20,385 nucleotides of DNA from an archaeon (GTDB lineage: Archaea > Iainarchaeota > Iainarchaeia > Iainarchaeales > Iainarchaeaceae), in contig DATDXA010000027.1 of NCBI GenBank assembly GCA_035289485.1, positions 1 to 20,385 of the forward strand, read 5' to 3'. Under the pieces are notes generated by a model. The model ran no database searches. It was not told where the DNA came from and saw only the letters and a list, made by a program, of their open reading frames with translations. Shown one piece after another: positions 1 to 7,495 of this stretch. Positions within the stretch are counted from its first letter, which is position 1. The number at the start of each line of letters is the position of its first letter. Both the position numbers and the translations under genes were made by a program.

Positions 1-57
1 AATTTTTTCCTACAGCCGCGCGGCATTCGGCTTAAACCTTTCGCCCTCTTGTGAGGC

Positions 58-71
58 CAAAAGGATTTAAT
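58..71 (+). promoter_or_regulatory. Putative archaeal BRE/TATA promoter for the small ORF + homing endonuclease operon
   Basis: CAAAAGGATTTAAT: purine-rich element followed by TTTAAT, resembling AAAAGGGATTTAAAT upstream of the second PCNA gene in this window. Confidence 0.45.
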
Positions 72-90
72 GCCTCTGCCGCGCCAAAAA

Positions 91-120
91 GCCTCCGGAA
101 AAAATTCCTTTCACGGAGGT
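91..120 (+). promoter_or_regulatory. Stem-loop sequestering the Shine-Dalgarno sequence of ORF 128..277
   Basis: GCCTCCG-GAAA (91-101) pairs with TTTC-A-CGGAGGT (109-120), with one bulged A and a 7-nt loop; the 3' arm contains the SD GGAGGT. Confidence 0.5.
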
Positions 121-127
121 GGTTCGA

Positions 128-277
128 ATGGAGTTTTCAAAAGAATTTCAAATTCTTCCTCCGACATCGGAGGAAATAATCGCGGCACAAAAGTTGCTGG
201 AAACGGATTCAGAATTCCTTACAGACAGGGAACTCTGGATTTTGTCAAACTATTTTGAGGAAGGTGATTGGGAATGA
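128..277 (+). CDS. Small acidic hypothetical protein (49 aa, MEFSKEFQILPPTSEEIIAAQKLLETDSEFLTDRELWILSNYFEEGDWE), not in the ORF track
   Basis: Translated by hand. SD GGAGGTG at 115-121 precedes ATG 128; its TGA (275-277) overlaps the endonuclease ATG (274) as ATGA, suggesting translational coupling. Confidence 0.7.
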   Translation: MEFSKEFQILPPTSEEIIAAQKLLETDSEFLTDRELWILSNYFEEGDWE

Positions 278-1362
278 ACTGTATGGCTTTGCCATACTTG
301 GCACCGGCACCGAACCCTGCACCGGAATATAATCCTCTCAAAGAGGCTTCTGTTATGGTGCCTCTTATCACTGAGCAGGATATCATTAGCACATATTCTG
401 CCAAAGAACAGTTTTCTTGCAGGAAATATTCTGAGTACCAGAAACTGATTGCAGAAAATCCAAGCTTTGGTTACAAGAGGGCTGCCAAAATTCTGGGAGT
501 CAAACCCGGAAAGACCCGCTGGTGGCACACCAAGGGCGAGAAGCGGGCGGTTCCATTGCCGCTCAAGGCTGCGCAAAAACTCAAAGACGCCGGGCTTCTT
601 CCATTTTACGAAAATCACAAAGACGCCGAGATTATCTTCAATATGCTCGGTGTATTGTTTGGCGATGGCGGAGTAGATGCCCTCTACAACGGGGTTGCAT
701 TCATCTCTTCGGACAAGAACGACATTGATTTGTGGGAATCAGATTTGCGCAGGGCATTTCCTTCAGCAAATGGGAAGATTGATATTATTGAAGGCGGGGA
801 ATACGGTCACTCGTATAATATCCGGTGTTACGACCGCTCAGTTATCAGATTTTTTGCGGCGTTAGGCGCTCCGGTCGGGGACAAAGTAAGCATTGTGTAC
901 TCCTTGCCAAAATGGATTTTCAACTCTTCGGATAACTCAAGGGCGGCTTTCCTTGACGGCTATCTTGCTGCTGAAGTTTCCGTAGTGAGATGGCGAGCCG
1001 ACTCGCTTGGAAATTTCCGATTTACCGATTTTGCCGTGGGCATTTCAAAGATTGAATTCCTTGAAAATGAGCACCGAATATTTATGAAAAGCCTTGAGGC
1101 GCTTCTTAAATCTGTCGGGATTCAAACCACAGGGAACATCCACAAAAACTCCGGTGCCGGCACACACCGCAAAGACGGTGCCTTTAGCGCCTCTTATAGA
1201 ATATTCATAAGAACGACTTTTCATCGTGTGCTTTTCTTCAACGAGAAATTTCAGTTACGGTACGCGTCATGGAAAAAGAGGAAAATGGTGAAAGTAATAC
1301 AAAAGGCCGTTTACGAGAAAAACGGCCAGCAAATCCCAGAAAATTACCTGCCAGAAAGTTAA
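274..1362 (+). CDS. Free-standing LAGLIDADG homing endonuclease (intein-type, with N-terminal HTH)
   Basis: Two LAGLIDADG-like helices, MLGVLFGDGG and FLDGYLAAEV; intein-endonuclease-type segment RFFAALGAPVGDK..LPKWI; HTH-like GYKRAAKILGVKPGKTRWW. No intein splicing blocks at either end. ATG 274 is preferred over TTG 268 (GAAGGTGA SD, ATGA overlap). Confidence 0.88.
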   Translation: MNCMALPYLAPAPNPAPEYNPLKEASVMVPLITEQDIISTYSAKEQFSCRKYSEYQKLIAENPSFGYKRAAKILGVKPGKTRWWHTKGEKRAVPLPLKAAQKLKDAGLLPFYENHKDAEIIFNMLGVLFGDGGVDALYNGVAFISSDKNDIDLWESDLRRAFPSANGKIDIIEGGEYGHSYNIRCYDRSVIRFFAALGAPVGDKVSIVYSLPKWIFNSSDNSRAAFLDGYLAAEVSVVRWRADSLGNFRFTDFAVGISKIEFLENEHRIFMKSLEALLKSVGIQTTGNIHKNSGAGTHRKDGAFSASYRIFIRTTFHRVLFFNEKFQLRYASWKKRKMVKVIQKAVYEKNGQQIPENYLPES

Positions 1363-1394
1363 ACCGGGTGTGTCAAATTATACTAGGCGATTCA

Positions 1395-1763
1395 ATGGAA
1401 AAAATTGATGGGCTCGAAGAAAAAGTAATGCTATTAATTAAAGCCAGGCAGGCCGGAAAACTTTCAGATTTAAGGCAATACCACGAAGCGCTTTCGGATT
1501 TGGATAGGGAACTGCTCGAATCAATCTTCACTGAAACTTGGGTACGTGGTTCTTTCTACAAAAAGCCAATGGGCTATGCCGAGAGAATGGGCCTGATAAT
1601 TGCAAAATACCCCGATGCTTACAAGCCTTGGGACAAAAACCAGGAAGAGAAACTAATCGAACTGCACAATGGTGGGAAATCAATAAGTGAAATCGGCGAA
1701 CTAATGCTCAGGCAGAAGGGTGCCATTAGTGCGAGGCTGAAAAGGCTCGGAGTGATAAAATAA
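1395..1763 (+). CDS. Small protein with C-terminal Myb/HTH-like DNA-binding domain (122 aa)
   Basis: C-terminal AYKPWDKNQEEKLIELHNGGKSISEIGELMLRQKGAISARLKRLG fits the W-x-x-x-E-x-x-x-L...G-x-S-I-x-E-I...R-x-x-G-A-I-x-x-R-L helix-turn-helix pattern. ATG 1395 avoids the overlap with the endonuclease gene. Confidence 0.7.
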   Translation: MEKIDGLEEKVMLLIKARQAGKLSDLRQYHEALSDLDRELLESIFTETWVRGSFYKKPMGYAERMGLIIAKYPDAYKPWDKNQEEKLIELHNGGKSISEIGELMLRQKGAISARLKRLGVIK

Positions 1764-1811
1764 CAAATCGTACCACAAAGAATTATAATTCCATTAACGG
1801 AAGTATCTCTT

Positions 1812-2495
1812 ATGGCCGGATTATTTGCGCACGAGTGGATTGCAAAACTGGTTTTGGGTAAGCTTTCCAAAAGGGGCTTCATTTCTGGCTACGAAAACAT
1901 CGATGATTATTTTTTCGGGGCAATAGCTCCTGATATAAGATACATAAACAATTCAGGGCGGGACATCACGCACCGGCCTTTTGGGGAGAATTCTATTTTT
2001 GAGGCATTGAAGGTAAGTAGTTCTTCAATGCCTTTCATTGCAGGCTATGAAACGCACTTAATTGTTGACGGCACATGGGCAAATGACAACGGTGCACTTG
2101 GAAGGAGCATCTACCAAAATTATGGCGTTAACGCAAATAATCCCATCCAAAAATTTTCCCTGTATCTGGCTGTTGATGATTATTTTCAGGCGGAAGCCGA
2201 TTGGGTTTTTCCTTTCGAAAGTTCAGGCAATATCCTGCGGGCAGATGACCTGTCTATTTTATTGAAACTTGGGTTCGGGCAGAAAGATATTGCCATATTC
2301 AAGGCAGCCGCAGCGGCATATGTGCGGGCTCCCGGGATTATCAATTTCAGGCCATTTAACATTCTGCCGAATAATTTTGACGAAACACTGCTAAGAAAAA
2401 TTGCCGACCAAATTCCTGCGATGACTTCTTTTCTCAAGGAGTTCAGGGATGTTTCGGTAGAAAAGTGCGTGGAGTCCTTGGAGCGGTATTTATGA
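1812..2495 (+). CDS. Zinc-dependent phospholipase C / P1-nuclease-fold family protein
   Basis: N-terminal His (AHEWIA), FFGAIAPD, ITH and AGYETHLIVD match the metal-ligand pattern of the Zn_dep_PLPC family; no signal peptide; substrate unknown. Confidence 0.7.
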   Translation: MAGLFAHEWIAKLVLGKLSKRGFISGYENIDDYFFGAIAPDIRYINNSGRDITHRPFGENSIFEALKVSSSSMPFIAGYETHLIVDGTWANDNGALGRSIYQNYGVNANNPIQKFSLYLAVDDYFQAEADWVFPFESSGNILRADDLSILLKLGFGQKDIAIFKAAAAAYVRAPGIINFRPFNILPNNFDETLLRKIADQIPAMTSFLKEFRDVSVEKCVESLERYL

Positions 2496-2620
2496 TAACG
2501 CCCCAAAAAATATTCATGATTTTTACACTGGTGTTTCTTGCCATTATCCTAGTTTTCGCCCTGTTCAGTTACGGCAGCCTCATGCTCTATTTCTACAATT
2601 TTTTCACTGCCGTGGACTGA
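2492..2620 (+). CDS. Small membrane peptide (42 aa, MITPQKIFMIFTLVFLAIILVFALFSYGSLMLYFYNFFTAVD), not in the ORF track
   Basis: ATGA overlap with the stop of the upstream gene; long uninterrupted hydrophobic stretch; fills the gap before the lon-C promoter. Confidence 0.55.
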   Translation: MITPQKIFMIFTLVFLAIILVFALFSYGSLMLYFYNFFTAVD

Positions 2621-2640
2621 TTGGCTTAACATAATGCACC

Positions 2641-2649
2641 CTATATAAT
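2641..2649 (+). promoter_or_regulatory. TATA box for the IntC-Lon(C) gene
   Basis: CTATATAAT lies about 25-30 nt upstream of ATG 2672, the spacing expected for a leaderless archaeal transcript. Confidence 0.55.
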
Positions 2650-2671
2650 GATTTTGGAATCACTAGCTATC

Positions 2672-2794
2672 ATGGAATTCAGGGCTAAAGAGGAAAATGT
2701 CACTTCCGTGCAGAAGCGCCCGTTCAAGGGCCATGTTTACAATGTCACAACCGAGACCGGAAATCTCTTTGTTGAAGATATTCTCGTTCACAAT
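2672..2794 (+). other. C-terminal half (IntC, 41 aa) of a split intein
   Basis: Block F-like [13 protein letters not shown] and block G ILVHN followed by Ser+1 (SGGLGTPPH). In-frame stops at 2618-2620 and 2627-2629 show that no N-terminal intein part is contiguous. Confidence 0.9.
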
Positions 2795-4102
2795 TCCGGC
2801 GGCCTTGGAACCCCGCCTCATTTGCGCGTGGAGCCCGGAATGATTCACCGCGCCTCTGGCGGAGTTTTGTTCATTGATGAGATTGCAACCCTTTCCATGA
2901 AATCTCAGCAGGAGCTTCTCACTGCAATGCAGGAGAAAAAATATCCAATTACAGGCCAGAGCGAGATGAGCTCGGGCGCAATGACGCGCACCGAGCCTAT
3001 CCCGTGCGATTTTGTCCTTGTTGCCGCGGGAAATTATGAGGACCTTGAGAAGGTTCACCCGGCACTTCGCTCAAGGATTCGCGGGTACGGATATGAAGTT
3101 TACATGAACCTTGAAATGGACGATAATGAGGAGAACAGAAACAAGATTGTGCAGTTCGTTGCGCAGGAAGTCACAAACGATGGGAAGATTTCGCATTTTG
3201 CAATGGACGCCGTTGAGGAAATAATTTTCGAGGCAAGAAGGCGCGCCGGAAGAAAAAACAAGCTAACCCTTAAGCTGCGTGATCTCGGAGGCCTCGTGCG
3301 CGCGGCAGGAGACATTGCAAAAGAAAAGAACCACAAGTTCACAACGCGCCAGGACATCATAGAGGCGAGAATGAGCGCAAAAACTCTTGAGCAGCAGATG
3401 GTTGGCAAGATGATTGATGAGAAGAAGGATTACGATGTTTATTTGCGCGAGGGCTCGGCAATAGGGCGCGTAAATGGCCTTGCCGTAATGGCAGATGGCG
3501 ATGCCGGCCTTGTAATGCCAATCGAAGCCGAGATTGCGCCCGCGCAATCCGCAAGCGAAGGAAAGCTGATTGCAACAGGAAAGCTTGGGGAAATTGCAAA
3601 GGAAGCCGTGCAGAATGTTTCGGCAATAATTAAGCGCCTCTCAGGCAAGGACATTTCAAAGAGCGATCTGCACATCCAATTCCTGCAATCTTATAGCGGC
3701 GTTGAGGGGGATTCTGCTTCAGTTAGCGTTGCAACAGCGGTTGTTTCCGCGCTTGAAGGGATTCCGGTCAAGCAAAGCCTTGCAATGACCGGCTCTCTAA
3801 GTGTTCGCGGCGAAGTCATGCCGGTTGGCGGAGTGACTTCAAAAGTTTCAGCGGCAATTACTGCGGGGTTTGCAGAAGTGATAATTCCAAAGTCCAATAT
3901 GGGCGATGTTGTGCTGACCGCGGAGCAGGCAAAGAAGGTGACCCTTATCGCGGTTTCAAATCTTTCCGAAGTTTTAGAGAATGCGTTCGTGAAAGGCGAG
4001 AAAAAGGACAGGCTGCTTGCAAGCCTTAAGAAGCTGATGAAGGATGCCTCGGCGAAAGATTCGGTGAAGGGAAAGCCGGGCGCCGCAATAACTTCAATTT
4101 AA
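2672..4102 (+). CDS. lon: ATP-dependent protease LonB, C-terminal part, fused to IntC
   Basis: [20 protein letters not shown], Walker [10 protein letters not shown], sensor-1 LVAAGN, Arg finger [13 protein letters not shown], catalytic Ser GVEGDSAS and Lys GGVTSKV. Walker A and the N-terminal region are absent. Alternative start ATG 2648. Confidence 0.95.
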
Positions 4103-4113
4103 TTAGGCTATTT

Positions 4114-5349
4114 TCAATTCAGCAAAATTCTTCCTTCGCTGAAAATGAAATCCCCGTTCTTTAGTTTCTGCGTCTTGTTCGTGCTCTTGTTCTTGAACTC
4201 GACGCTCTCGCGCGAATTTATCGATTCAACAGTGCCAATCCACTTGCCGTCCCTGCTATAAACCGGCAGACCCACAAGGAGCTTTGTGATTTTCTTGCGC
4301 AAATCAAGAACCTGTGAAACCCTGTATGCCGCAAGCCCGACAATGAACATCGCAAAAGCGTTTATGCCAAACCATGTAATGTCCGCGTACGGCTTGCCAA
4401 CTATTACCTGCCTTCCTGCATCGAGTATGTACCAGAGTATGAACACAGCCGCCGCTGAGAGGAAATATTTCCTGATGTTGTATGCCCTCTTAAGCTGCAG
4501 CGCATCCACGCTCTTTCCTATGACAAATGAAATCGATGAGAGTGCCAAAAAAAGAAGCATCTGCCCGATCGCTTCGGAGACCCTCACAAGGATTGTTCTT
4601 CCAAGCAGGCTGAATTCAATTACCGAGGCGTATACCCCGAACACGAAAAGCAATATTGTCATGAGGTAGAAGGGAAAGCTCACGCGCTGCAGCGAGAGGC
4701 TGCCAATAACCGTTTTCACGGCGCCGGCAATCCTGTATTCAAGCCCTGTTCCCTTTAGTATCAAATATGTTCCCACTACAAGCAGCATGCTCCGGAAGAA
4801 GAGCTCTTCAGAGTTCATGAATGCGAGTATTCCCCAGAGCAAAACAACCGTTCCGGGAACGAGTATGAATGTGCGCGTGAAATCGGGGTCCTGCAGCGCC
4901 CTTTTTATTGTAAAATAAGTGCTCTCAACTTCGGATGCCTGTGAAACTATTATTGTCTCTTTTGAAACTATCGGCGCCCTGCTCTGCAGAATCGGTATTA
5001 CTTGGTCATCCTCAGCGCCGTCCGTTACAAGCACAAAGCCTGTAGCCGGGAATTTGTCAAGCACCATTTCAAGCTGTTGGGAAATTTTCCTATCGGACTC
5101 ATACCCTGTTTTTCCATGGCCTGTGAGCACCGCAACTTGCGCATTGGATGTTGCCTTTACTTCCTCGTATTTTTTCACGGCGCCAAAGATGCTGTTTGAA
5201 TCTGAATCTGTCGGGTCTGCAAGCGCGAGTTTTGCCGCGGCCTTGATGCATTCATCCTTGCCTATAATGGGCCCCTGCACCCCCGCCTTTCTTCCAAGGT
5301 CGTTGTCGCGGTCAACGCACAAAACCAGTATATTTTCGTTCTTATCCAT
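4114..5349 (-). CDS. DUF373 family membrane protein with a C-terminal PRC-barrel-like domain
   Basis: LVLCVDRDNDLGRKAGV..GP, LADPTDSDSN and VTDGAEDD motifs, several transmembrane helices, C-terminal LVGLPVYSRDGKWIGTVESI. Confidence 0.85.
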   Translation of the reverse strand: MDKNENILVLCVDRDNDLGRKAGVQGPIIGKDECIKAAAKLALADPTDSDSNSIFGAVKKYEEVKATSNAQVAVLTGHGKTGYESDRKISQQLEMVLDKFPATGFVLVTDGAEDDQVIPILQSRAPIVSKETIIVSQASEVESTYFTIKRALQDPDFTRTFILVPGTVVLLWGILAFMNSEELFFRSMLLVVGTYLILKGTGLEYRIAGAVKTVIGSLSLQRVSFPFYLMTILLFVFGVYASVIEFSLLGRTILVRVSEAIGQMLLFLALSSISFVIGKSVDALQLKRAYNIRKYFLSAAAVFILWYILDAGRQVIVGKPYADITWFGINAFAMFIVGLAAYRVSQVLDLRKKITKLLVGLPVYSRDGKWIGTVESINSRESVEFKNKSTNKTQKLKNGDFIFSEGRILLN

Positions 5350-5376
5350 TAGCAAGCACTAACCCAAAGCCAGATA

Positions 5377-5388
5377 CCTATATATAGG
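5377..5388. promoter_or_regulatory. Palindromic TATA box in the divergent DUF373/SPFH intergenic region
   Basis: CCTATATATAGG, a perfect palindrome about 30 nt upstream of the DUF373 ATG on the minus strand. Confidence 0.5.
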
Positions 5389-5438
5389 ATTCCAGCATTT
5401 AATAATTTATTATCAAGGTTTAATTAAGGTTTTCTGAA

Positions 5439-6485
5439 ATGGTGTCTTTGAAGGACCAGGGGCATTCTGCCGCAGACCACGAGTTTGAGGAGCATCCTCA
5501 CGGTGAAACCCGCGGCCATCCGTCACATGACGAAAAGGAGAAGAATTTCAAGCAGGGCATTTTCATTGCGCTGCTCGCTGTTTTTGCGCTCATTCTTTTT
5601 TTCGTGCTCAAAACCTTTTCCGCGCTTTTGCCAAATCTTTGGTGGATTGTAATCGTTGTGCTGATACTCTATTTCATTTCAAGCTATGGCTACCTTCTCC
5701 AGCTCGCAGATTATGAAAGGGCTGTCATTTTCCGCCTTGGAAAAGTAAATCGTGTGGGTGGCCCTGGCTGGGCGCTTGCGTTCCCGCCGATTGAGGCTTA
5801 TAATGTCGTTGATTTGCGCACAAAAACTTTGGATATTCCAAAGCAGGAAGTCGTAACAAAGGACAATATTGAGGTCACTGTTGATGCAGTCATTTATCTC
5901 AAAATAGACAAGGACAACCAGTCCGTGATAAACAGCATCATTGAAGTTGATGATTACCTAAAGGCATCAGAGCTTTTTGTTTCAGGCCTAATCAGGGACA
6001 AGGCCGGCTCAATGGATTTAAGCGAACTCATTTCCAATGTAGAGGAACTAAATGTCGTGCTCAAAAAAGAGCTTGAGAGGCTTGCAAAGAAATGGGGCGT
6101 TGTAGTTGAGGAAGCGGTGATACAGGACATACAAATCCCAAAGGATGTTCTTGACTCGATGCATGCGCAAAAAATTGCGGTGCAAAATAAGCTCGCGCGC
6201 CTTGAGAGGGCCGAAGGGCACAGGGCGGAAATTGAGGCCGTGATGTCTGCTGCCGAGAAGCTAAATGACCGCGCGCTTGCTTACTACTACATCAAGGCAC
6301 TTGGAAAGCTCGGCGAGAGCAAGAGCACGAAAGTGATTTTCCCAATGGAACTTACAAACCTTGCAAAATCCCTTTCAGGCGATAAGGGGCTTTCTTCGGA
6401 CGCTCTCGAAGGGCTTTTTCGAAAGTACGCGCCGCTTGTAAAATCGCTTGCGCAAAAAGAAAAGAAAAAAGGGAAGAAGAAATAA
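5439..6485 (+). CDS. SPFH/band 7 (stomatin-like) membrane protein
   Basis: YERAVIFRLGK, GPG, VDLRTKTLDIPKQEVVTKDNIEVTVDAVIY, KWGVVVE..IQDI, KVIFPMEL; two N-terminal transmembrane helices. Confidence 0.92.
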   Translation: MVSLKDQGHSAADHEFEEHPHGETRGHPSHDEKEKNFKQGIFIALLAVFALILFFVLKTFSALLPNLWWIVIVVLILYFISSYGYLLQLADYERAVIFRLGKVNRVGGPGWALAFPPIEAYNVVDLRTKTLDIPKQEVVTKDNIEVTVDAVIYLKIDKDNQSVINSIIEVDDYLKASELFVSGLIRDKAGSMDLSELISNVEELNVVLKKELERLAKKWGVVVEEAVIQDIQIPKDVLDSMHAQKIAVQNKLARLERAEGHRAEIEAVMSAAEKLNDRALAYYYIKALGKLGESKSTKVIFPMELTNLAKSLSGDKGLSSDALEGLFRKYAPLVKSLAQKEKKKGKKK

Positions 6486-6514
6486 GTTCGCAAAAAAAAT
6501 TCCAAGCAGGCTTC

Positions 6515-7495
6515 TCATTTCCCAGATTCCCTAATCCTATTGAGCCTGTATCTCACCGAAGGAATATAGAGAACCATGTAGAGAGCAACGAATGCAACCA
6601 CTCCGCCAACCGCGGCTTCCCAGTAATTGAATATTTCCGCGGTTTCGATAAATGCGCCAATGAGAAGCGTTACAAGCGCGAGCATTAGCAGAAGCACCGT
6701 ATCAATGAACACTATGCGAATCTCGTGCTTTTTGAATGTTTTTTTCGATATTGCAGAGGATATTATTCCGCCGGCAATCGCGGCTATGAAGTATGCCATG
6801 ATTTCAGGGATCCCGTGCGGCAGATAGCTAATCGCGCGCACGATTCCCGCATCAAGGCTTTTTGAAGTTATCTCAAGGCCCACAAAAAGCCCGATTACCG
6901 ATGCGTTCCATCCCAAAAGGAAAAGGGCCCCCGCGCCCCATATTAAAGAAAATATTATCGCAAGCACCATCACCCAGTTGTTGTTGTTAAATATCAGCCG
7001 GAAACAGGCCTCAAAGCTTTTTGTTTGCGAGTTAAAGCACTCCTCCGCCCCCACGACTTTTCCGGTTATGCCGCTGTAAACATTTTGCTGCTCTGAAAAT
7101 ACCTTGTCCTTTTCAGGGAGCATGCACGAGAGGCCAAAAGGCGATGATTTGCAGTCCGCATTGCTCTCAGGCAGGGCAACTGCCCAGAAGCTGTATGTGA
7201 TTATCATCCCGACAAAAATCCAGCCGTATATGTGCAGGACATCAAAGTGCGTTCCAATGAATGAAAATGGCATGTCCTCTTCTGAAACCTCCTTCTCCTC
7301 GCTTCTTGCAAGGAGCTCATTGATTATTGGCATAAATGCAAGGGAAACGAAGGCAATCGCAAGCACCGAGCTGCTTTCGGGGAATGTGTGGTATGCGATA
7401 AAGAGTGAAATTGTGGTGATGGCAAAAGCGATGAAAAAGAGGGTTATAGGGTGCCTTTCTGCGCCTTCTGTCGTAATAAGCGATTCGAGCACCAT
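6515..7495 (-). CDS. Stage II sporulation protein M (SpoIIM)-family integral membrane protein
   Basis: Multi-pass hydrophobic protein with IFNNN, WNASVIG, LPHGIPEIMAYFIAAIAG and GAFIE motifs. Confidence 0.8.
   Translation of the reverse strand: MVLESLITTEGAERHPITLFFIAFAITTISLFIAYHTFPESSSVLAIAFVSLAFMPIINELLARSEEKEVSEEDMPFSFIGTHFDVLHIYGWIFVGMIITYSFWAVALPESNADCKSSPFGLSCMLPEKDKVFSEQQNVYSGITGKVVGAEECFNSQTKSFEACFRLIFNNNNWVMVLAIIFSLIWGAGALFLLGWNASVIGLFVGLEITSKSLDAGIVRAISYLPHGIPEIMAYFIAAIAGGIISSAISKKTFKKHEIRIVFIDTVLLLMLALVTLLIGAFIETAEIFNYWEAAVGGVVAFVALYMVLYIPSVRYRLNRIRESGK

Follow-up and report, generated by a model that had tools for sequence, protein, structure and literature searches.

How can an archaeon obtain a complete LonB protease from a gene that opens with the tail of an intein and lacks the ATP-binding P-loop? 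The question is raised by a stretch of 20,385 nt (here called the window: positions 1 to 20,385, forward strand, of contig DATDXA010000027.1 in assembly GCA_035289485.1), which comes from an archaeon of the family Iainarchaeaceae, in the DPANN group. The gene under study, at positions 2641–4102, had been read in a first-pass annotation as the C-terminal part of a Lon protease that is assembled through a naturally split intein. Our analysis supports this reading, and we put the probability at roughly 0.86 that lonB of this organism is a 'fractured gene', in which two genes are split within an intein and their products are joined by protein trans-splicing. As judged from the sequences, LonB is very probably stitched together after translation.

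A LonB gene that begins inside an intein

On the forward strand of the window, a single open frame starts at ATG 2648 and ends with the stop codon at 4100–4102; the open reading frame (ORF) is also given with a length of 490 aa. The frame contains another ATG at 2672, and in the alignment it is this second codon that corresponds to the start used by relatives. The product from ATG 2672 is 476 aa long. It consists of a 41-aa C-terminal intein half (IntC, 2672–2794, forward strand), identified by alignment and by predicted docking on its partner, and of LonB from Ser+1 onwards. IntC ends in ...FVEDILVHN, and SGGLGTPPH begins directly after it at 2795, so that the VHN/S junction occupies 2786–2797. 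An in-frame TAA (2627–2629) lies upstream. A TATA-like box, CCTATATAAT (2640–2649, forward strand), is located 22 nt before ATG 2672 and is conserved in relatives; it is a putative promoter of the leaderless type.

The C-extein (2795–4102, forward strand, 435 aa and a stop codon) carries Ser+1, Walker B, the LID, and the S16 protease domain, as assigned with Pfam, the NCBIfam model TIGR00764 (LonB), and LonB structures in the Protein Data Bank (PDB). The Pfam matches of the ORF are Lon_C (E 7e-32), LonB_AAA-LID, and AAA-type families. The AAA-type matches begin only at profile positions 58–96, deep inside the profiles, which shows that the ORF has no P-loop (Walker A). Walker B (VLFIDE, 2864–2881), the GDSAS motif (3707–3721), and the lysine of GGVTSK (3842–3844) were read in the sequence. 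TIGR00764 is matched over profile positions 181–607 of 608 with 658.5 bits, against a cut-off of 516.6 bits. The IntC motif is no chance match. Its 34 C-terminal residues are 44% identical (E 2e-9) to the terminus of an unbroken intein that a relative carries at this position of Lon, and the protein of that relative shows a match to Pfam Intein_splicing. The first-pass annotation had described the 41-aa opening, the upstream stop, a TATA box belonging to the gene itself, intact AAA+ and protease motifs, and a missing Walker A, and all of these are present as described.

The N-terminal half and its position

A gene that begins in this way calls for a partner with the P-loop and the front of the intein. 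Such a gene had been predicted, and it was found. The assembly from which the window comes (G000; 1.16 Mb, 64 contigs, 90% complete) has two strong matches to TIGR00764, namely the window ORF and C35:1147–1767. Contig C35 is 2243 nt long, and its ORF (LonN-IntN, C35:1132–2151, 339 aa) comprises LonB residues 1–205 and a 134-aa N-terminal intein half (IntN). The LonB part contains Walker A (GLPGTGKS) and two hydrophobic segments and ends in ...GDVRHDPLQ. Cys1 of IntN is residue 206 of the ORF, right after ...HDPLQ; the block B motif TxxH is TPEH, within ...SVTPEHKV...; and the stop codon TAA (C35:2149–2151) lies 92 nt inside the contig end.

The two halves are complementary. LonN matches TIGR00764 positions 3–196 (189.6 bits), and the window ORF continues the coverage from 181 to 607. 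The solved Thermococcus LonB structures 4zpx and 3k1j align with the N-half up to ...DPFQS (E 8e-49 for 4zpx), which places the intein between Q and S. This alignment and the contiguous intein alleles of two relatives (G012 and G038) agree with the earlier statement that Q/SGGLGT is the intein site of LonB. The exteins sum to 640 aa (205 + 435), and intein-less lonB frames in close relatives are 637–644 aa long. Taken over both halves, the extein motifs (Walker A, membrane segment, Walker B, LID, and S16 domain with the Ser-Lys protease motifs) form the archaeal LonB set. By these motifs, neither LonB half alone is a complete ATPase.

The 3' end of C35 is identical to the first 12 nt of the window (1–12, forward strand). 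This is the sole end overlap found for C35, and it has the same orientation. The tail of C35 and the head of the window are collinear on single contigs of three relatives (G005, G001, and G003), in the register of the 12-nt overlap, and two contigs cross the window start. In the joined sequence both halves lie on the same strand. The gap between the IntN stop and ATG 2672 is 2751 nt, and the distance from the IntN stop to the endonuclease ORF described below (TTG 268) is 347 nt, equal to the spacing in G005. The claim of two separately encoded polypeptides holds in that both genes exist; they are not unrelated loci, and lie 2751 nt apart with an endonuclease cassette between them.

The contig break (window 1–110, C35 2100–2243) is flanked by the two arms of a 12-nt inverted repeat (GGAATTTTTTCC / GGAAAAAATTCC), which are about 85 nt apart. 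In run X1, several alternative contig ends are seen at window positions 32, 71, and 280. The repeat and these ends probably explain why the assembly breaks at the window start. Contigs from runs of other studies match the window without any difference at 2170–2935 (X4) and 2486–2827 (X3), which indicates that the window sequence is not a quirk of one assembly.

Conservation, selection, and predicted docking of the intein halves

The residues expected of a splicing intein are kept. In 13 aligned split genes, position 1 is Cys in six and Ser in seven. TPEH is invariant in all 12 readable split genes (G013 is masked), and two contiguous alleles have TPNH. The C-terminus of IntC reads HN/S in 14 of 16 sequences and SN/S in two, always with Ser at +1. 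Over its last 23 residues IntC hardly varies, and the pattern F.GH(V/A)...[IV]LV[HS]N is nearly invariant among 14 split genes. The stop after IntN and the start before IntC are both conserved in relatives.

The ratio of nonsynonymous to synonymous substitution rates (dN/dS) was calculated with the NG86 method for six genomes of the genus. It was taken only from the few pairs with dS < 1.5; in most pairs dS is saturated, and what these show is a low dN. The values are 0.10–0.16 for IntN, 0.04–0.09 for IntC, and 0.05–0.06 for the exteins. By this measure both intein halves are under purifying selection, and neither has the look of decay that was raised at the first pass as a possible refutation. 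One genome, G001, differs in that its IntN has a dN of about 0.6, compared to about 0.1 for its IntC and exteins, and is similar to IntN of the Ser1 type from other families. The N-half may have been exchanged, or two types of IntN may coexist with a single type of IntC.

IntN was modeled in complex with residues 1–60 of the C-half, alongside three controls. The interface score (ipSAE) is 0.88 (0.87, 0.88, and 0.88 in the individual runs), versus 0.00 for the best of the three controls. The model confidence (pLDDT) of the partner is 72, and at least 85% of the contacts agree between runs. In calibration, 51 of 78 solved complexes and 2 of 108 mismatched pairs came up to the mark set for ipSAE. 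The high score of the predicted complex may partly reflect likeness to solved split inteins.

In all 12 relatives whose upstream regions were compared, an A/T-rich box ends about 22–24 nt before the ATG of the IntC gene, and nine of these boxes read (C/G)CTAT(T/A)TAA. A similar box precedes most LonN starts. Promoter-like boxes before both genes would fit separate leaderless transcripts.

Distribution of the split gene

We compared 41 genomes, G000 included. LonN frames of 335–375 aa that stop after IntN are present in 12 of them, including G000. In G023 the frame also ends after IntN; it is 822 aa long and contains one more intein upstream. In G034 the pieces lie at contig ends. A contiguous intein at the same site was found in two relatives (frames of 1066 aa and 1130 aa; G012 contig 44 and G038), and intein-less lonB frames of 625–754 aa in about 20. 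Four of the 41 gave no match with the LonN-IntN query. LonN and the IntC ORF lie on one contig and strand, 1.1–3.4 kb apart, in eight genomes (G001, G002, G003, G004, G012, G017, G031, and G033). The halves share contig and strand in G005 and G023 too, and are on different contigs in G039.

An evenly drawn sample of 151 genomes represented the whole order. IntN matches (E ≤ 1e-5) were obtained in 42 of these genomes, in 17–18 of 32 families; the genomes new in this sample were judged by frame length alone. The matching frames are 335–400 aa long in 31 genomes, 822–827 aa in two, contiguous at 1124–1158 aa in three, and shorter than 300 aa in six. The six short frames are probably cut by contig ends. 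Frames ending after IntN are present in 33 of the 151 sampled genomes. With the IntN region as query, a collection of 5.8 billion proteins gave 62 clusters at 90% identity, 209–428 aa in length, from metagenome-assembled genomes (MAGs) of Candidatus Diapherotrites, the NCBI label for relatives of the window organism, and of Micrarchaeota. These clusters are labeled 'ATP-binding protein' or 'Lon-like protease'. Where public annotation calls the halves 'ATP-binding protein', Lon would score as missing or truncated in these genomes.

In the independent groundwater run X3, one contig leads straight from GDVRHDPLQS into window position 2798, and downstream of there it is at least 95% like the window. 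An intein-less lonB allele therefore coexists in the same groundwater community. Elsewhere in the 1.16-Mb genome of G000 there are six contiguous inteins, in frames of 703–1179 aa (contigs C31, C51, C4, C62, and C43; loci L096–L103), five of them with LAGLIDADG_3 matches, and several free-standing LAGLIDADG ORFs of 204–426 aa. The six contiguous inteins indicate that the organism handles inteins routinely; for its small size the genome is rich in them.

Proposed route to LonB and its alternatives

In the route that we propose, the intein at ...DPLQ/SGGLGT... in the AAA+ module would have been broken into two genes at the usual insertion point of an endonuclease. Gene 1, on C35, would give a membrane-anchored LonN-IntN protein of 339 aa, and gene 2 (2672–4102) a soluble IntC-LonC protein of 476 aa, each being transcribed from its own TATA-like box. 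The intein halves would associate into one HINT fold and then undergo class-1 trans-splicing, by an N-S acyl shift at Cys1, trans-esterification to Ser+1, cyclisation of Asn41, and an O-N shift. The product would be a LonB of 640 aa. Its junction, HDPLQ-SGGLGT, would lie in the AAA+ module, after Walker A and before Walker B. The gap between the genes would hold what remains of the mobile part, namely a free-standing LAGLIDADG endonuclease gene and a small ORF whose translation is coupled to it, alongside passenger ORFs.

Several observations weigh against this route. The join of C35 and the window consists of a 12-nt overlap and synteny, with no visible spanning read. In the genome search and the Pfam scans alike, neither intein half alone matches Pfam Intein_splicing (PF14890) at E ≤ 0.01. 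This family is matched by the contiguous allele at the same site (E 5e-13), and the split halves align to the two ends of that allele; the profile spans both intein halves, and a lone half may fall below the threshold. IntN alone aligns with the contiguous allele over block B only (29 aa, E 5e-5). The penultimate residue of IntC is Ser in G039 and G012 contig 43, which have SN instead of HN. Block F is VYNV, in the contiguous alleles likewise, and many class-1 inteins carry Asp there. A search for RNA runs containing window positions 1–4102 found none, and the runs compared here consist of DNA contigs. Finally, a MAG that is 90% complete leaves room for an unassembled intact lonB.

A second, intact lon had been named at the first pass as a finding that would speak against a split LonB. 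No other lonB was found in G000 with TIGR00764 and Pfam. The sole other Lon-like gene in this assembly is on contig C13 (L112 503–3025, minus strand). It encodes 840 aa with a Lon_C-like S16 domain at residues 72–182, and the protein has no AAA+ match and no match to any other family. Frames of about 800 aa similar to this protein are seen in nearly all relatives.

What could the two genes be, if not the parts of a trans-spliced protein? The fragments might assemble without splicing, with the intein halves acting as a non-covalent, high-affinity dimerisation module and all 175 intein residues being retained. The docking prediction supports association and not chemistry, the penultimate His is absent in two relatives, and block F has Asn where Asp is common, all of which would suit such a module. 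Binding alone, however, has no need of a position 1 that is always Cys or Ser, or of TPEH, a terminal Asn, and Ser+1 that are invariant across families. The cut also separates Walker A from Walker B, midway through the AAA+ fold, and an insert of 175 residues at this point would probably disturb the hexamer. We regard this arrangement as unlikely. That lonB is dead, its intein and protease broken by insertion of the endonuclease cassette and its pieces left as decaying pseudogenes, appears very improbable. Both ORFs are intact, and the same break recurs in at least 33 of the 151 sampled genomes and in many families. dN/dS is far below 1 in the exteins and the intein halves, albeit with saturated dS, conservation extends to the start codon, the stop codon, and the promoter boxes, and no replacement lonB was found in the genome. 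This is set against the facts that DPANN genomes are reduced and contain split genes, and that no RNA run holding the window was found.

An error of assembly or binning, which would have brought together halves from different strains or mis-assembled a contiguous intein gene, is the explanation to which we give least credence. C35 is only 2243 nt long and is joined by 12 nt, and run X1 has its alternative contig ends at 32, 71, and 280, as an artefact might. Both halves and the gap are nevertheless found on single contigs in eight relatives, three relatives are collinear with the contig ends on both sides of the join, the stops after IntN and before IntC are both inside contigs, and the region 2170–2935 is reproduced exactly by contigs of other studies. 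A fractured lonB joined by trans-splicing is the reading that we prefer.

If LonB is trans-spliced, one may speculate that the reaction is a post-translational control point on the protease. A wider picture is doubtful, and we offer it tentatively. In it, the cassette of small ORF, LAGLIDADG gene, and ORF227 (see below) would still be homing into the coexisting intein-less lonB; the host would set the level of active LonB through a membrane N-half and a soluble C-half with separate promoters; some relatives (G005, G023, and G031) would build a three-piece LonB with two orthogonal natural split inteins; and the Ser1/Ser+1 variants would be natural split inteins without cysteine.

The gap between the halves

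All ORFs in the gap are on the lon strand. The first is a conserved small ORF of 49 aa (128–277, forward strand; ...LTDRELWIL...) with a Shine-Dalgarno-like GGAGGTG in front. Its stop codon overlaps the start of the endonuclease gene (ATGA). The peptide is kept in five relatives (G001, G003, G004, G005, and G013), and the ATGA overlap is kept in the four of these in which it was looked at (G001, G003, G004, and G005). The ORF has no Pfam match, and seems to belong to the endonuclease cassette. A stretch of about 80% nucleotide conservation at the contig join was considered as a non-coding element and rejected, as it corresponds to this ORF and its coupling to the endonuclease start. Rfam at gathering thresholds gave no match in the window, C35, and the loci of three relatives, and the gap shows no sign of an intron or of a known structured RNA.

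The next ORF (274–1362, forward strand, 362 aa) starts at ATG 274, or at TTG 268 in the ORF list. It is assigned as a free-standing homing endonuclease gene of the LAGLIDADG type from its motifs, fold, and NCBIfam match. Among 10 homologues, LFGDGG and FLDGxxxxE are invariant (G130-D131-G132 and D228...E234). The AlphaFold2 model has a pLDDT of 84.8, and Foldseek with this model gave 82 PDB matches at E ≤ 0.001. The top match is I-Tsp061I (E 8e-7), followed by E-DreI, I-DmoI, and PI-SceI, all four with a probability of 1.00. The ORF also matches the endonuclease part of the NCBIfam RtcB-intein model NF038162 (E 9.5e-17). It has no Pfam match, LAGLIDADG_3 included, and searches of PDB sequences with this protein (single sequence and profile) and with ORF227 returned nothing useful. 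The model thus has the LAGLIDADG double-domain fold, and cleavage of DNA is predicted. The protein is 26–30% identical to the endonuclease domain of the second Lon intein of relatives (see below); with the endonuclease part of the contiguous alleles at the same site, no similarity was found at E ≤ 1e-3. Homologues of the endonuclease occupy the gap in seven relatives (G001, G003, G004, G005, G012, G013, and G033).

An ORF of 164 aa (1269–1763, forward strand; 126 aa from ATG 1383) taken from the ORF list is poorly conserved. It has no Pfam match, and among the loci compared it has a homologue in G004 alone (34% identity). It is followed by ORF227 (1812–2495, forward strand, 227 aa), a conserved ORF whose predicted fold comes closest to those of zinc phospholipase C (PLC) and S1/P1 nucleases, as suggested by a sub-threshold Pfam match and by fold comparison. 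Pfam Zn_dep_PLPC is matched at E 4.6e-5 with 23.9 bits, below the cut-off of 26.8. H7, D31, H54, H82, D86, D122, and D123 are invariant. The model has a pLDDT of 85.5. Its six best VIA-align matches are all PLC or S1/P1 nucleases, at Z 8.8–6.7 with the next at 3.7, in a tool which notes that Z under 13 is weak for helical proteins; Foldseek found no match for this model. A homologue of ORF227 is located in the gap of five relatives. The gene occurs in 23 of the 151 sampled genomes, in one to three copies and mostly away from lon, with fragments in some. In G002 the lon gap has two copies of ORF227 and no endonuclease. ORF227 is perhaps a mobile passenger gene, or else it represents a second type of nuclease.

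The last ORF of the gap (2465–2620, forward strand, 51 aa) is hydrophobic and doubtful as a gene, with weak similarity in G002 only. No relation was found to the 210-aa membrane ORFs that lie 3' of ORF227 in distant loci. The TIGR00764 match of the window ORF could be extended upstream to 2507 across two stop codons; we attribute this extension to spurious matching of the hydrophobic 51-aa ORF.

A second split intein and implications

LonB of three relatives, G005, G023, and G031, is interrupted by a second split intein at ...EPIP/CDFVL..., near sensor 1 (L054 of G005, 4258–7358; L055 of G023, 3838–6992; L056 of G031, 3129–6229, reverse strand). IntN2, a LAGLIDADG domain, and a helix-turn-helix-like tail are fused to the middle Lon piece in ORFs of 627–646 aa. 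The IntC2 ORF of 403–406 aa starts with a 41-aa IntC2 (...IVVHN/C) and overlaps the stop of the IntN2 ORF by 1–4 nt. From this layout, LonB of these three genomes would be made from three polypeptides. The second split intein is not present in the genome of the window.

Natural split inteins are few and are the basis of protein ligation tools. The split LonB intein adds a large and diverse family with a canonical split site, a short IntC of 41 aa, and Ser at +1. Both Cys1 and Ser1 forms occur, and the Ser1 forms have no catalytic cysteine. Split inteins of this cysteine-less kind are described in PMC13014065 as sought by users. In some relatives, the second, related split intein of the same protein would provide natural pairs for tests of orthogonality. 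If trans-splicing takes place as proposed, an AAA+ protease of the essential type depends on it across a whole lineage.

Comparison with known systems

The literature search found no paper on a split Lon intein, within a coverage that leaves most subscription journals outside and does not include supplements. In this sense the split Lon intein is new, as a further member of the kind known as fractured genes, the nearest system known. Such genes encode an enzyme in two parts, separated within a split intein, and have a homing endonuclease gene standing free between them (Dassa et al. 2009, PMC2677866). The LonB locus shares with it a conserved enzyme gene in two parts and, in the gap, a free-standing homing endonuclease gene with control elements of its own. 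Its IntC of 41 aa falls within the 33–54 aa of the systems given there, whereas its IntN of 134 aa is longer than their 88–105 aa (PMC2677866). Those systems are mainly from phages and concern enzymes of DNA synthesis and repair, while LonB is a membrane protease of a cellular archaeon (PMC2677866). Half of their endonucleases are Vsr-like, with others besides, and the word LAGLIDADG is absent from the main text of that paper; the LonB gap contains a LAGLIDADG fold and, unlike the layout given there, additional ORFs (PMC2677866). The fracture of genes within inteins would thereby extend from DNA metabolism genes of phages to a housekeeping protease of cellular archaea. With a free-standing endonuclease between the halves of one enzyme gene, the window's lonB has the defining feature of a fractured gene.

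Among DPANN archaea, Nanoarchaeum equitans PolB, as reportedly described by Choi and co-workers in 2006, is said to be an essential enzyme whose two halves are joined by a natural split intein. Its halves are reportedly encoded at loci distant from each other, without an intervening endonuclease, the extein being a DNA polymerase and the case that of a single organism. The LonB intein differs from it in a membrane protease as the extein, a widespread family, and neighboring halves with an endonuclease. Another relation is to the split intein that is fixed across a bacterial lineage in a replication enzyme; as would be the case for LonB, assembly of the host protein depends on it. That intein has Cys both as its first residue and at +1, and no endonuclease gene is known between its halves.

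The LonB inteins recorded so far are contiguous, and Table 2 of PMC4760082 gives ten of them for Euryarchaeota. The contiguous alleles of G012 contig 44 and G038 occupy the same site, ...DPLQ/SGGLGT..., and are homologous in blocks B, F, and G. The contiguous inteins are single ORFs with the endonuclease domain in frame, whereas in the window the ORF of lonB is cut and the endonuclease is a separate gene.

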